Positions 25,309-43,299 of a DNA stretch of 43,299 nt are shown here, one piece after another. The stretch lies in IMG/VR virus record IMGVR_UViG_2703718838_000011. One strand, 5' to 3'. Source of the stretch: a virus. Lineage: Duplodnaviria; Heunggongvirae; Uroviricota; Caudoviricetes. A model generated the notes under the pieces. It ran no database searches, was not told the origin of the DNA, and worked only from the letters and a program-made list of their open reading frames with translations. Numbering within the stretch: the first letter of the stretch is position 1; every line of letters starts with the position of its first letter. Position numbers and translations under genes: made by a program.

Positions 25309-25412
25309 GTAAAAAAGGGATTAAAAGCTCATAAAAACGGCTTTTTTGGATTATTCATCATCTTTTTTGATGCACGTAACAATCCAAATATAAAAACAAA
25401 GTTTCGACAAAA

Positions 25413-25432
25413 AACCCGCTCGATGGCGGGTT
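25413..25432 (-). terminator. hairpin terminator immediately downstream of Q
   Basis: Stem AACCCGC/GCGGGTT with 6-nt loop, flanked by A-run on plus and U-run on minus transcript. Confidence 0.4.
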
Positions 25433-25497
25433 CTTAATTCTTTGTCGACCTACGAAGCTATGGCGACGATATCAGATTTACATGAAATATATGCGTT

Positions 25498-26187
25498 TCA
25501 ATCCAGTTTTGCAAGACTTGAGTCTAAATTTGTCGCCTTTTGTTGTGAACGTGATCGCGTAACCTGCAATAAAGCCCCGCTATCCAGTCGCAGGAAGATG
25601 CTGCGCATCTCAACCCAGCGGTCAGTAAAGGTCTCTGACCAGTTTTTTGGCGTTACGCCAACCAGCGACGCCAGCGCCTGATATTCGTACATCTCACGCC
25701 CTGCCAGCTCTGCTTTCACGTCCTGAGCCGCGAGCCAGACAAGCTTCTTCAGGCGCTCCATCGTTTTGCCGGCCACCTTCTTCGCGCCGAGCTGCTCCCG
25801 GAACTCTGCCCACGCCCATTGAGTGATTTCCACCTGATAGCACCAGCGCACGTTCTCGCTATAGTTCCATAGCAGCCACGCTTTCTGGTGTTCTTCGAGT
25901 GACATCAGTGCGCGGCGCCACGATGCGCTGGAGTATTCAACCGGCTGCACCAGGGGAATATGCGAACCCTTGGCATGCGACTGCTTGCCCGGTATTGGCG
26001 GGTTATCCAGCGTAATCATTTCCCCGGTCACTTCATCCAGCACTCGAGGCTTTTTACGTTTAAACGTTCCCGTATCGAACTGCGCGTTTTCAAGCCACGC
26101 CATCAACTGCCCTTTCGTCGCACCACTTAAATCGGCGGTGGCCACCATCAACTGCTGGCGCACGTATTCGAGAAATTGAGTATTCAT
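25498..26187 (-). CDS. late-gene antiterminator Q
   Basis: 229-aa ORF between nin genes and the late/lysis region; start overlaps ylcG-like stop (ATGA). Confidence 0.65.
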   Translation of the reverse strand: MNTQFLEYVRQQLMVATADLSGATKGQLMAWLENAQFDTGTFKRKKPRVLDEVTGEMITLDNPPIPGKQSHAKGSHIPLVQPVEYSSASWRRALMSLEEHQKAWLLWNYSENVRWCYQVEITQWAWAEFREQLGAKKVAGKTMERLKKLVWLAAQDVKAELAGREMYEYQALASLVGVTPKNWSETFTDRWVEMRSIFLRLDSGALLQVTRSRSQQKATNLDSSLAKLD

Positions 26188-28724: not shown

Positions 28725-29066
28725 TTATTTGCAGGTAAATTGCACTACATCACCCTGAGACATTTGAAAGAATCGGTAATCACCATCTCCACGTCTTTGT
28801 ATAATATTGCCCTCTTTAGTCGCACCAGATGGGTATGTCTTTCCTTCCGGTTTTTCTGGCCTAATCTTGCTTGTGGTGTAAGAAATGGTCCCAAAGTTAA
28901 CTGTTATTGAATTTCCGATGTCAGTTATATTTGCCTTTACTTCGCCGGATTTTACTTCATTTGAGGTCATACTCCTTGCTATTCCAGAGCATACATATTC
29001 CTTTGCTTCAACGGCATGGGGCATAAGAAAGCCAATTCCTAACAACGTGATCGCCAAATATTTCAC
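28725..29066 (-). CDS. secreted protein of unknown function (moron)
   Basis: GTG 29066 with SD AAGGAG; signal peptide VKYLAITLLGIGFLMPHAVEA; extended -10 promoter TGTATAAT on minus strand at 29110-29117; Cys near both ends of mature part. Confidence 0.5.
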   Translation of the reverse strand: MKYLAITLLGIGFLMPHAVEAKEYVCSGIARSMTSNEVKSGEVKANITDIGNSITVNFGTISYTTSKIRPEKPEGKTYPSGATKEGNIIQRRGDGDYRFFQMSQGDVVQFTCK

Positions 29067-29228
29067 TTTATCTTCTCCTTGATGAGTCCCCCTCGATACT
29101 TTGGGAGGGATTATACAAAAGAAAAGTGTGGTCATGGCTATTTTTGGTAATGTTATTCGATGATAATTCACTTTATTTTTTAAATCATAATGCTATATTT
29201 CTTTCACCCCTTGCTTGCAAGGTACAAC

Positions 29229-29320
29229 GGAGGGTTGGCCGAGTGGTTGATGGCACCTCACTGATAATGAGGCGTACGGGCTATAAACCCGTACCGCGGG
29301 TTCGAACCCCGCACCCTATT
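29229..29320 (+). tRNA. tRNA-like gene with class II (long variable arm) fold; anticodon loop CUGAUAA gives anticodon GAU if folded canonically; acceptor stem imperfect
   Basis: Hand fold: acceptor GGAGGGT/ACCCTAT (one mismatch, one G-U), D-arm GCC-GAGTGGTTGAT-GGC, anticodon stem CCTCA/TGAGG, variable arm with 7-bp stem GTACGGG/CCCGTAC, T-arm GCGGG-TTCGAAC-CCCGC; no encoded CCA. Confidence 0.45.
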
Positions 29321-29321
29321 T

Positions 29322-29359
29322 AAGGGGTCGACAAATGTCGGCCCCTTCTTCGTTTTATA
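29322..29359 (+). terminator. rho-independent terminator following the tRNA-like gene
   Basis: 9-bp stem GGGGTCGAC/GTCGGCCCC (one G-U) with 4-nt loop, followed by TTCTTCGTTTT. Confidence 0.65.
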
Positions 29360-29408
29360 CATCAAATTTGGCTCTACCCGCACCGCATTCCTACCTGCTA
29401 AAACTTCA

Positions 29409-29540
29409 TCAATCACCTGCCATTGCGTAGCCGAGATTACCGCCGTCGCTTTGTGCTGCTGCTTTTATGAGTATTTCCTGTATCTCGTGCAGACGATCGA
29501 GTGATACAGGACCGTTCACCGGGTGGTTGTTAATTGTCAT
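29409..29540 (-). CDS. possible small ORF (43 aa)
   Basis: ATG 29540 with SD AAGGA 5 nt upstream; MTINNHPVNGPVSLDRLHEIQEILIKAAAQSDGGNLGYAMAGD; below track cutoff. Confidence 0.3.
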   Translation of the reverse strand: MTINNHPVNGPVSLDRLHEIQEILIKAAAQSDGGNLGYAMAGD

Positions 29541-33144: not shown

Positions 33145-33828
33145 ATGAGTTTTTCTGAGCGATTAGATCGCGCAATGAATGAGGCGGGTTATACACAGGG
33201 CAAGCTAGCTAAGGCAGTTGGCATGGCACAGTCAAGTGTTAACAAGCTGCTAAATGGTGCATCAAGCTCAAGAAAAACGGTCGAGATAGCTTCTGTTCTC
33301 AATGTTCGCCCTGAATGGCTTTCCACGGGATCCGGACCGATGCGTAACGATGGCCAGCTACCGCCTCCCATTACCGCGACAAAAAAAGACTCAAACATAT
33401 TCAGAGTTGACGTACTTGACCTGACATTTAGCGCGGGGCCAGGTTCTTTCATGATTTCTGAGTTTGTTGAGGTTCTACACGCCATTGAGTTCACAACCGA
33501 ACACGCTCGTTCACTCTTCGGAAATCGTTCTCAGGAAGACGTAAAAGTAATGACGGTCGATGGCGACAGCATGTGTCCAACTATACAGTCTGGTGACAGA
33601 TTGTTTTTCGATATTTCTGTAAGAAACTTCAAGGTCGACGGTGTTTATGCGTTCGTTTTCGGACAACATTTCCATGTGAAGCGCTTGCAGATGCAGGGCG
33701 ATAGGTTGGCAGTTTTGTCTGATAACTCAGCTTATGAGAAGTGGTACATTAACGAAGGTAATCAGGATCAACTCTACGTAATGGGTAAGGCATTGATTCA
33801 TGAATCAATAAAGTATAACCGATTGTAA
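33145..33828 (+). CDS. cI: CI-like prophage repressor (HTH domain plus S24 LexA-like autopeptidase domain)
   Basis: N-terminal HTH (QGKLAKAVGMAQSSVNKLLNG), C-terminal peptidase motifs (DGDSM serine, downstream VKRL lysine); SD AGGGGG. Confidence 0.85.
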   Translation: MSFSERLDRAMNEAGYTQGKLAKAVGMAQSSVNKLLNGASSSRKTVEIASVLNVRPEWLSTGSGPMRNDGQLPPPITATKKDSNIFRVDVLDLTFSAGPGSFMISEFVEVLHAIEFTTEHARSLFGNRSQEDVKVMTVDGDSMCPTIQSGDRLFFDISVRNFKVDGVYAFVFGQHFHVKRLQMQGDRLAVLSDNSAYEKWYINEGNQDQLYVMGKALIHESIKYNRL

Positions 33829-41911: not shown

Positions 41912-42109
41912 ATGGATGATATTTTGGTAACGTCAGACCTGACCAGTCGCTACAAAATTTCACGCAAAACCCTTTGGTCATGGCAAAGTGCAGACACAAT
42001 GCCTCGGGGCTTCGTATGCCCGTTCCCACCCCCTGACTGGCCCGGCAACCCTAACCGCTGGCGCTCTGAGTCAATCAAAGAGTGGGAGGATAAAAAGAAG
42101 ATAAATTAA
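41912..42109 (+). CDS. xis: excisionase / AlpA-family DNA-binding protein
   Basis: ATG 41912 with SD GGAGAGAG; 65 aa; ...[14 protein letters not shown] resembles AlpA/Xis C-terminus; 3' end overlaps integrase 3' end. Confidence 0.6.
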
Positions 42110-43299
42110 CTGAAGGGCTCTCCGATGATCTCTTCAAGATGGCTCTGCCAAACGCGGAGCCAGTGTTTCTGATCATCGATATAGTCATGAAGGTTGTAAT
42201 GCGCCATAACCCCCACCATCTGATGCCCGAGCAGCTTTTCAATTACGTGCGGCGGGCAACCTAACTCAGAGAGATTTGTGGCTATCGTCCGCCTCATATC
42301 ATGAAGCGACCACTCTGCCATACCTGTTCCATTCCAAATAGAACGGGCGTAATTGGATGCCACAGGTGAATGAACGGGCGAATCTTTGATCCCGCCATCA
42401 ATTTTACGTTGTGAAGTCACCAGGTGATTGGTGTTTATTTTCTTGAGGTGATTTCTGACCAGGTTAACGGCGGCGTCTGAGAGTCCCCTTCTAATATGTA
42501 CCCGAGTTTTATAACTGCCCGCAGGCACGACCCACTCATTATCATCCAATCGAAACCATGATCTCTCACTAAGTCGAATCTCAGCCGTACGGCATCCGGT
42601 AAGCATAATAAATTTCACCAGGAAAACGGACTCTATCGACATATGGCTTTTCAACCACTGATAGATTTTGCGCAGATCGTCATCGTCCATCCTGCGAGTT
42701 CTCTTTTTAGGCTTTTGCCCGACATCAGATGGCAGTAATCCCTCGAGTGGGTTTGAGGCGATCACACTTCTGTTAACGCAGAACCTAAACGCCCGTTTGC
42801 ACAGCGAAAGCATGTAATGAGCCATCACCCTGCTTTCTATAGAATCGAAGACGTTGATCCAGTGCATTTTCGCTGTGTTATCGACTTTGACATTCTTCAT
42901 CGGTTCGGCGATATGTTTCTCAAACACCTGGCGATAGTAATCGACTTTAACTAGCCCGTTAGCGATACAGTGCCTTTCAATCCAGTAATTGAACGCTTCG
43001 GCAACGGACATCGCTTCCTGTCGGGTCTGCTTATCCAGCTTCACCTGCTCTCGCGGATCCAGTCCCTCAGTTAACCAGTTTCTGAATTGTTGGCGACGCT
43101 CTCTTGCCTGGGTGATACTCATTGCAGGATAATCACCAACATTGAGTTTTACCGCTTTACCGGCCCAGCGATACCGATAGAAAAATGATATTTTTCCGGC
43201 CTGGCTGATTCTGGCGTTGAGCCCGTGCGAATCAGAAATAATCTCGATATCATCTCTTTTCTTGCCGAGCGCCTTCCTGAGCTTTGTGTCGGTGATCAT
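42106..43299 (-). CDS. int: tyrosine recombinase / phage integrase (P4-type)
   Basis: 397 aa, ATG is the last three bases of the window; C-terminal catalytic region HDMRRT...LGH...HY consistent with R-H-R-Y integrase motifs. Confidence 0.9.

Follow-up and report, generated by a model that had tools for sequence, protein, structure and literature searches.

The stretch of DNA analysed here, IMG/VR virus record IMGVR_UViG_2703718838_000011 (43,299 nucleotides (nt) in its full length, referred to below as the window), is a lambdoid, Rac-like prophage, and most of it matches prophages of complete Escherichia coli genomes at 93-99% identity. On its plus strand, at 29229-29320, it carries a 92-nt class II gene resembling a transfer RNA (tRNA), with the body of a serine tRNA, the anticodon GAU of an isoleucine tRNA and a defective acceptor end. 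The reading that we favour, with a probability of roughly 0.4, is that this gene encodes a selected tRNA mimic, produced from a mobile and self-contained transcription unit of the 'moron' type, rather than a working tRNA-Ile. The gene is probably not an ordinary tRNA and would be, at most, a heavily attenuated missense tRNA.

The anatomy of the gene is that of a tRNA in all but its acceptor end. ARAGORN calls a tRNA-Ile(gat) at 29229-29320, the sole tRNA call in the window, and the Rfam tRNA family (RF00005) spans the identical interval end to end with 46.4 bits (gathering score 29; E=6.8e-07 for the whole window), while an E-value search of 29100-29450 against Rfam returned no family besides tRNA. 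The score is low, yet it lies inside the 32-70-bit range of phage tRNAs given the same scoring, by which L125, a Ser-type GAU tRNA whose acceptor stem is perfect, reaches 61.9 bits and two 87-nt tRNAs of locus L019 with long variable arms reach 49 and 58 bits. RNAfold gives four arms and a 7-bp variable-arm stem for the 92 nt; the fold z-score is weak for the tRNA alone (-1.8) and falls to -3.3 when the terminator is included and to -3.7 for the full predicted transcript. The core is canonical, with U8, A14, G15, G18G19, A21, a G15:C48 Levitt pair, a canonical T-loop within the T-arm GCGGG-UUCGAAC-CCCGC, and an acceptor/T-stem split of 7/5. The anticodon GAU (29263-29265) lies in the loop CUGAUAA with U33 and A37, and the 21-nt variable arm (29274-29294) consists of a 7-bp stem and a 7-nt loop. 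At the acceptor end, according to the Rfam alignment and a cloverleaf drawing, the strands GGAGGGU and ACCCUAU form a G1·U72 wobble (G1 at 29229) and a G2xA71 mismatch (G2 at 29230), followed by five good pairs; the defective 3' end A71/U72/U73 (29318-29320) leaves U73 as the discriminator, CCA is not encoded, and UAAGGGG, where the terminator starts, comes directly after position 73. An earlier sequence-only reading of this DNA had drawn a Ser-type cloverleaf of class II whose variable arm has a 7-bp stem, and ARAGORN, Rfam, RNAfold and the serine profile described below bear this out, both predictors calling a tRNA exactly where it had placed one. Its anticodon loop, T-arm, G2xA71 mismatch and missing CCA likewise stand, as does the terminator that it saw after the gene, recovered by a terminator scan as an 11-pair stem; its account of the acceptor end was right on the 2:71 mismatch and passed over the G·U wobble at 1:72 and U73.

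The identity elements of the gene do not add up to any one amino acid. Scored with its anticodon masked, the body reaches 47.5 bits on a tRNA-Ser profile, compared with 31.5 on one for tRNA-Tyr and 5.2 on one for tRNA-Leu, the profiles having been built from phage class II tRNAs collected here with training sets partly chosen by D-arm motif. The closest sequences outside the family are tRNA-Ser, and the anticodon arm is most like that of the phage tRNA-Ser(GCU) of L019, GCU being one substitution from GAU. A D-arm pattern scan with T34 fixed, which was also the source of control tRNAs, returned almost only tRNA-Ser(UGA), consistent with a Ser-type D-arm, although the same D-arm is common in phage tRNA-Tyr (60 of 79 matches). 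In E. coli tRNA-Ser, G1-C72 and G2-C71 are absolutely conserved, G73 contributes as an in vivo determinant and the foremost element is the variable arm; tRNA-Ile has the discriminator A73 and the anticodon as strong determinants and C4-G69, U12:23 and C29-G41 as minor ones; and for leucine identity A73 is crucial and the anticodon is ignored (PMC9976931). Held against these elements, the gene has the long variable arm and core of a tRNA-Ser and lacks G1-C72, G2-C71, G73 and a serine anticodon (NGA or GCU). It has the complete isoleucine loop G34 A35 U36 A37 A38 and lacks the class I architecture of tRNA-Ile(GAU), with U73, G4-C69, C12-G23 and U29-A41 in place of A73, C4-G69, U12:23 and C29-G41. 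The acceptor-end determinants for the seryl-, isoleucyl- and leucyl-tRNA synthetases (SerRS, IleRS and LeuRS) are all absent, and by these tests of membership the gene is neither a tRNA-Ile nor a tRNA-Ser, despite its database name: PGAP labels the identical sequence 'tRNA-Ile' in 11 of 5,426 complete E. coli genomes.

The same elements bear on the proposal that the gene is a genuine spare tRNA-Ile, which would be charged by IleRS through its anticodon loop and, made resistant by its foreign body and altered acceptor end to tRNases directed against host tRNA-Ile(GAU), would serve as a toxin-proof backup in the lysogen. The full isoleucine anticodon loop is present, the contact-dependent growth inhibition (CDI) toxins CdiA-CT(EC3006) and CdiA-CT(Kp342), from E. 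coli 3006 and Klebsiella pneumoniae 342, use uncharged tRNA-Ile(GAU) as their substrate (PMC9086364), and class II tRNAs are poorly cleaved by another CDI tRNase (PMC11724271). However, U73 stands where A73 is a strong determinant, the minor determinants are missing as well, and a sister copy with a leucine anticodon, described below, has the same body, although LeuRS ignores the anticodon and needs A73. Class II tRNAs with anticodons that normally belong to class I do exist in phages: IMG/VR contigs of jumbo phages, mostly above 140 kb, hold tRNAs with a Ser-type D-arm, a long variable arm and the anticodons GUU for Asn (L135, L137, L162, L163, L166, L194, L203, L205), CUU for Lys (L135/L206) or UUU for Lys (L145, L167), which seem to be class II forms of tRNAs that normally belong to class I. 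An automated check finds their acceptor stems closed, and where discriminators were inspected by eye they suit the anticodon, with G73 on the Asn tRNAs of L135 and L162 and A73 on the Lys tRNA of L135; the window gene has neither a closed stem nor a fitting discriminator. Taken together, we regard a spare tRNA-Ile as improbable.

On sequence comparison the gene is the core of what appears as a mobile promoter-to-terminator module. The whole module, comprising promoter, leader, tRNA-like gene and terminator, occupies 29182-29356 on the plus strand, as delimited by blastn against the related loci L123, L130, L138 and L188: the homology blocks start sharply at 29182, 29189 or 29194 and end at 29354 or 29356, which gives a unit of ~165-175 bp. 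Module identity is 90-96%, against 66-76% for homologous flanking protein genes, and the immediate flanks are unalignable by blastn. The relatives were found by pattern scans of public collections; L123 (IMG/VR) and L130 (a gut-type metagenome contig) share the GAU anticodon, L138 and L188 (both IMG/VR) carry a different one, L001 and L131-L133 are identical copies, and the E. coli copies are 100% identical to each other. Five distinct lambdoid nin-region contexts are represented, and in all of them the module lies antisense to its neighbours, between DnaC/P-type replication genes and NinB/DUF1367/RusA/Q. No copy turned up in near-identity searches of INPHARED phages or of plasmids, a distant phage search returned only a Rhizobium-phage tRNA-Ser at 77% identity, two early viral sequence patterns had no matches, and a protein-database search with the translation across the tRNA, directed at miscalled open reading frames, gave no candidates. 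As for the features that mark a moron, an own terminator and a mosaic distribution are observed, and the promoter is putative.

In the window, small minus-strand genes leave a gap of 342 bp that holds the tRNA-like gene; it is ~13 kb away from the integrase (42106-43299, minus strand) and antisense to every neighbour, that is, to the whole early-right operon. This agrees with the sequence-only reading, which had placed the gene inside the prophage, far from the integrase and on the strand opposite to its neighbours, and had held it unlikely to be the attachment-site tRNA. That it is an attachment-site tRNA or the remnant of one is hardly credible in our view: the sole hint of a recombination junction is the change at the 3' end (positions 71-73), whereas the gene is complete from position 1 onwards, occupies the nin region in each of the five contexts and is accompanied by its terminator, and no host tRNA in 5,426 E. 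coli genomes resembles it, even at E=10. A recent origin from a host tRNA-Ser was rejected on the same ground, no E. coli host tRNA being similar enough at that threshold.

The elements around the gene point to a transcription unit of its own. We infer a promoter from an invariant TATATT hexamer with an upstream TG, which together form a putative extended -10 element, TGcTATATT (29191-29199, plus strand); the hexamer is found in four of four lineages and the TG one base upstream of it in three of four, while the next 6 nt vary at five positions. Between this element and the tRNA lies a 5' leader hairpin, CCUUG-CUUG-CAAGG (29209-29222, plus strand), which is conserved and is predicted in the fold of the full transcript; the leader ACC together with the hairpin has no variable column among 17, while the neighbouring spacers vary. 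As DNA, the leader palindrome is unique in the window, other near-matches being at chance level, and the idea that it is an operator was dropped on account of this uniqueness in favour of an RNA hairpin. An invariant leader hairpin is unusual for a tRNA gene and suggests that the leader is retained or controls processing or stability; together with the abutting terminator, it suggests that the whole transcript matters. The intrinsic terminator (29322-29356, plus strand, terminator scan) consists of an 11-pair stem at 29322-29347 followed by CTTCGTTTT, and across lineages all four loop nucleotides vary, against one of 22 stem positions. Two further pairings were considered and found unsupported, namely a long-range helix AACGGAG/CUUCGUU in the minimum free energy fold, in which a G-to-A change in L138 and L188 lacks compensation, and an antiterminator formed by leader CCCCUU and the 5' arm of the terminator, where there is no variation to judge by.

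The pattern of variation within the module speaks clearly for purifying selection on the unit and against decay. When the four distinct lineages were aligned over 163 nt and variable columns were counted by structural class, the -10 box, the leader hairpin and the stems together showed four variable columns among 101 and the spacers, loops and tails 19 among 62 (31%), a contrast whose Fisher p of 3e-6 is indicative only, as the classes were set after the alignment had been viewed. Among the first group, the -10 hexamer had none of 6 columns variable, the paired positions of the tRNA 3 of 56 and the terminator stems 1 of 22; in the second, the counts were 5 of 6 in the spacer after the -10 box, 2 of 6 in the linker before the tRNA, 4 of 36 among the unpaired tRNA positions, 1 of 1 at nucleotide 74, 4 of 4 in the terminator loop and 3 of 9 in the tail. 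Two of the three variable paired positions of the tRNA compensate each other, namely in the basal pair of the variable arm, which changes from G:C to A:U in L138 and L188 and is the only compensatory event in the family, and the third is G13·U22 versus G13·A22. A decaying pseudogene is disfavoured because the variable columns avoid the promoter and the stems, and the earlier suggestion of a degenerate phage tRNA fares poorly both on these counts and on the fact that the module is better conserved than the flanking genes.

A second line of evidence comes from an exchange of the anticodon loop. L138 and L188 match the window gene in body and in acceptor end (ACCCUAUU) and differ in the loop, which is CUUAGGA (anticodon UAG for Leu, G37) in place of CUGAUAA; the acceptor defect is thus invariant in all family members, the UAG variant included. 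Positions 34, 36 and 37 make up three of the seven variable columns of the tRNA, a clustering that has P=0.001 for columns 34-37 and P of ~0.1 if any four-column window is allowed. Position 37 shifts with position 36, A37 following U36 and G37 following G36. U36-A37 and G36-G37 are the contexts for the modifications t6A37 and m1G37, respectively. Because GAU with A37 is swapped for UAG with G37 on a constant body, we conclude that the functional surface of the RNA would include the anticodon loop and would be specific for a codon or an anticodon.

Both lines of evidence have to be set against the possibility of a non-functional relic, i.e. a phage tRNA-Ser (e.g. GCU) that lost its 3' end, drifted and now hitch-hikes with the genes beside it, its conservation merely reflecting recent horizontal spread. 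The closeness of the anticodon arm to the tRNA-Ser(GCU) of L019, an acceptor defect and missing CCA that resemble damage, the complete identity of the E. coli copies and the minimal covariation would all fit such a history. It does not account for substitutions that spare the -10 box, the leader hairpin and every stem, for sharp module borders in five unrelated flanks, for three coordinated changes that yield another valid anticodon loop complete with a fitting nucleotide 37, or for the compensation of the sole stem change, and we consider a relic improbable to about the same degree as a spare tRNA-Ile. Even less likely is that the module is a cis-antisense or transcription-interference element, in which a convergent transcript would damp early-right read-through into nin and Q and the tRNA shape would only provide a stable scaffold. 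The invariable antisense position between replication genes and Q, with an own -10 box and terminator, is what such an element would show, and lambda OOP and paQ RNA offer comparisons for a short convergent transcript. Yet the precise swap of the anticodon loop and the retention of all tertiary-contact nucleotides of the tRNA are left unexplained, and the intergenic gap offers no coding target.

Open acceptor ends recur in other, unrelated Ser-type tRNAs with the GAU anticodon. A scan for a Ser-type D-arm and a GAU loop that left the acceptor unconstrained found three viral and five metagenome-assembled genome (MAG) loci; as the pattern demanded GAU, the scan says nothing on an enrichment of this anticodon. 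Whereas the window family, including L123, has G1·U72, G2xA71 and U73, L122 (1814-1903, plus strand) and L124 (1117-1204, minus strand) have A1xC72, C2xC71, G73 and CCA, L126 (2939-3025, minus strand) has CxC twice and L129 (123-210, plus strand) GxA twice, so that 1:72 and 2:71 are unpaired in all four loci. L122 and L124 differ by compensatory changes in the anticodon stem and by wholly different yet paired variable arms, and share the open end. In a control set of ~170 distinct canonical class II tRNAs (Ser, Tyr and Leu, from fetched loci), practically none was open at 1:72 or 2:71, the three flagged Ser controls being one-base register artefacts. The remaining loci, from Planctomycetota/Tepidisphaeraceae MAGs (L125, 3372-3462, minus strand; L127, 2697-2789, minus strand; L128, 3589-3683, plus strand), hold Ser-type class II GAU tRNAs with a closed, perfect 7-bp acceptor stem and G73, and on paper these would be good SerRS substrates that read isoleucine codons. 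The L126 tRNA is directly preceded by an apparent T-arm of another tRNA.

Given these observations, we propose that the putative extended -10 promoter would let the repressed prophage produce an RNA of ~150 nt, antisense to the early-right operon, in which a stable 5' hairpin would be followed by a correctly folding, L-shaped class II Ser-type body and by a terminator hairpin that begins one nucleotide past position 73. The anticodon arm carries a faithful isoleucine loop (GAU, A37), or in sister phages a leucine loop (UAG, G37). The top of the acceptor stem is kept open (G1·U72, G2xA71, U73, no CCA), which takes away the acceptor-end determinants for SerRS, IleRS and LeuRS and would weaken use by EF-Tu. 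The RNA begins with GG, its acceptor top is unstable and it lacks CCA; a GG start reportedly provides the sequence context for CCACCA addition, and the RNA would be a candidate for such tagging. Every E. coli tRNA gene encodes CCA, and tRNAs with unstable acceptor stems receive a CCACCA tag and are then degraded by RNase R (PMC5824355). The RNA may engage machinery that reads the anticodon arm, the long variable arm or both, with anticodon-specific tRNases, modification enzymes, a synthetase or, for the uncharged form, the ribosomal A site as candidate partners; its role in the lysogen would be that of a decoy or regulator, not of a normal elongator. Anticodon-specific tRNases are plausible decoy targets, with the CDI toxins mentioned above as a lead, although nothing ties the module to those toxins; CdiA-CT(EC536) was discarded as a specific lead, as it cleaves most tRNAs at 32/33 and is not Ile-specific. 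The analysis itself shows how the gene is built, that its unit is mobile and under selective constraint, that its anticodon is swapped and that identity elements are missing; the transcription, processing state, lack of charging and target of the RNA we infer.

Several points weigh against a selected mimic. The promoter has no good -35, and a consensus promoter scan, which demands a -35, made no call. The family is small, with four distinct sequences, and the structural classes behind the constraint count were, as said, defined with the alignment in view; a covariation test rests on the single compensatory pair, which 113 of 500 shuffles equal, and is not significant. The scan that revealed other open ends carried its GAU anticodon in the query. 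Neither a target nor a conserved protein partner, toxin-antitoxin or defence gene was found beside the module, the neighbours differing from one context to the next and showing no relevant Pfam family. Lastly, E. coli SerRS mainly reads tertiary shape and the variable arm, so that some serylation may occur, and a position 37 matched to the anticodon is what a real decoder needs and fits a missense tRNA equally.

The last two points lead to the alternative that we take most seriously, an attenuated missense tRNA, which is possible but on balance doubtful. Here the transcript would be processed by RNase P and by RNase BN or an exonuclease, receive CCA, be weakly charged by SerRS via the variable arm and insert serine at AUC and AUU, with the sister copy acting at CUA and CUG codons and the broken acceptor end keeping mistranslation tolerable. 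The canonical core (U8, A14, G18G19, G15:C48, T-loop) and the canonical anticodon loops, with U33 and a position 37 matching 36 in both variants, are in keeping with this, as is the dominance of the variable arm in serine identity. Against it, AUC and AUU occur very often as codons and the lysogen seems to be where the unit is meant to be expressed, so that even modest activity would be costly. An open 1:72 pair, in addition, would disfavour EF-Tu, as is generally known from initiator tRNA. The gene also has none of G1-C72, G2-C71 and G73 and does not encode CCA. Among natural relatives in the broad sense, allo-tRNAs with leucine anticodons insert serine in E. coli and nev-tRNAs decode by the identity of their body and not by their anticodon (PMC3333845), but allo-tRNA(UAU) species with destabilised stems are inactive in suppression assays. 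Where the sequence-only reading had named a tRNA-derived regulatory RNA or a mis-decoding tRNA, the data fit either of the two.

A bolder version, which we put forward tentatively and think rather unlikely, is that E. coli lysogens would carry a natural, mobile 'anticodon-cassette' tRNA, with one Ser-type chassis, a deliberately opened acceptor end and an anticodon loop exchanged between phages (GAU for Ile in the window, UAG for Leu in others). G1G2 and the unstable acceptor top are predicted to make the CCA-adding enzyme add CCACCA, and refolding could then restore G1-C and G2-C pairs around a 3-nt bulge, yielding an A discriminator and a CCA end. Such a conditionally activated missense or decoy tRNA might reprogramme or sense translation at specific hydrophobic codons and might serve prophage defence or protection against tRNase toxins.

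The wider prophage encodes a CI-type repressor (33145-33828, plus strand), the Q antiterminator (25498-26187, minus strand), RecE/RecT, O/DnaC-type replication proteins, a nin region with DUF1367, DUF1364 and RusA, a terminase and tail proteins. A minus-strand gene at 28725-29066 travels with the module in E. coli; its 113-aa product has a predicted signal peptide and matches no Pfam family. The exact protein, on record in 492 blocks of the assembly collection, accompanies the identical module in nine of nine contigs inspected, in prophages with differing replication and nin genes. It is absent beside the module in L123, L130, L138 and L188. Two matches to Hfq-binding small RNA (sRNA) families were seen elsewhere on the minus strand, namely isrJ at 25410-25482 (58.7 bits), directly downstream of Q and probably a short promoter-proximal late transcript of the prophage, and a full-length STnc490 match at 6176-6299 (146 bits) in the tail/baseplate region. 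In L001, the E. coli ECCWS199 (NZ_CP032237) prophage with an identical module, there is also a class I tRNA-Thr(UGU) with encoded CCA (3856-3930, minus strand), at the usual lambdoid site downstream of Q and co-oriented with the late genes, which is absent from the window prophage. L215 (E. coli Z142-1, NZ_CP159700) has an IS3-family transposase inserted at 1435-2597, downstream of the module terminator, and its tRNA module is intact. The end of L123 (14109-14188), the viral contig with the closest GAU relative, lies in the SraC/RyeA-SdsR/RyeB sRNA locus, and its prophage therefore adjoins this enterobacterial locus.

As to what these findings mean, the RefSeq label 'tRNA-Ile' covers a gene that cannot be an ordinary isoleucine tRNA, which is a warning for pipelines that name tRNAs by anticodon alone. 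Swapped loops on one chassis, recurring open ends and a signature of selection suggest a design principle over decay. Charged with serine, the RNA would amount to a naturally occurring tRNA that causes mistranslation in E. coli isolates from clinical and animal sources, with a bearing on proteome fidelity, stress tolerance and the conflict between prophage and host. If it is an uncharged mimic, it would represent a new, RNA-only type of moron that might serve as a decoy for anticodon-specific tRNases, such as the CDI toxins that target tRNA-Ile(GAU), or as a codon-specific regulator; and if the cassette idea holds, it would be the first such system in a model enterobacterium. The fact that the host is E. 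coli makes these predictions easy to test.

Full-text literature searches, within their incomplete coverage, returned no description of the gene or of Ser-type tRNAs with isoleucine or leucine anticodons in lambdoid prophages, while dual-identity and non-canonical tRNAs as such are already known. The closest precedent, by analogy, is the allo-tRNA(UAU) group, the most abundant allo-tRNAs, which have a Ser-type body with stem-destabilising mutations, are inactive in translation assays and sometimes toxic (PMC5389517); allo-tRNAs also lie near mobile or toxin-antitoxin loci (Mukai et al. 2016/17, Nucleic Acids Research; PMC5389517). They share with the window gene a Ser-type long variable arm joined to non-serine anticodons, isoleucine being the commonest in allo-tRNAs, and the use of one body with diverse anticodons (here GAU and UAG). 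However, their acceptor/T split is 8/4 or 9/3 and not the canonical 7/5, their isoleucine anticodon is UAU and not GAU, they come from Acidobacteria and soil metagenomes and not from enterobacterial lambdoid prophages, and the active ones carry G73, whereas the window gene has U73 with open 1:72 and 2:71. The nev-tRNAs of nematodes (Hamashima et al. 2012, Nucleic Acids Research; PMC3333845) are likewise class II bodies with glycine or isoleucine anticodons and a mismatch between body and anticodon, and are weakly expressed; they differ in being eukaryotic and Leu-type derived, with the isoleucine anticodon UAU and intact acceptor determinants, and they are leucylated and decode in vitro. The tRNA-ProX of Streptomyces and Kitasatospora is a natural bacterial tRNA whose body and anticodon specify different amino acids, but it has a class I Pro body and is not phage-borne, and the accessible part of its description mentions no open acceptor end (PMC11415595).

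Among phage-carried tRNA genes, the canonical ones of lambdoid phages (Asn/Leu in phage L, Asn/Thr in Sf6) lie downstream of the late promoter (PMC8022706), just after Q and PR', are co-oriented with the late operon and are normal class I tRNAs, CCA being encoded in the tRNA-Thr of L001. Their presumed role is to supplement codon usage, whereas the window gene is antisense, sits in the nin region with its own terminator and a putative promoter, and has a hybrid identity. With phage morons (PMC3594210) it shares the independent promoter-terminator unit between operon genes, the promoter being putative here, and the mosaic horizontal spread, but the usual morons encode proteins and the window module only a tRNA-like RNA. 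Thus, while allo-tRNAs, nev-tRNAs and tRNA-ProX have already established that a tRNA can have two identities, we rate as new the combination of a 7/5 Ser-type chassis, an open acceptor end and an exchangeable anticodon loop in what would be an RNA-only moron of E. coli prophages.

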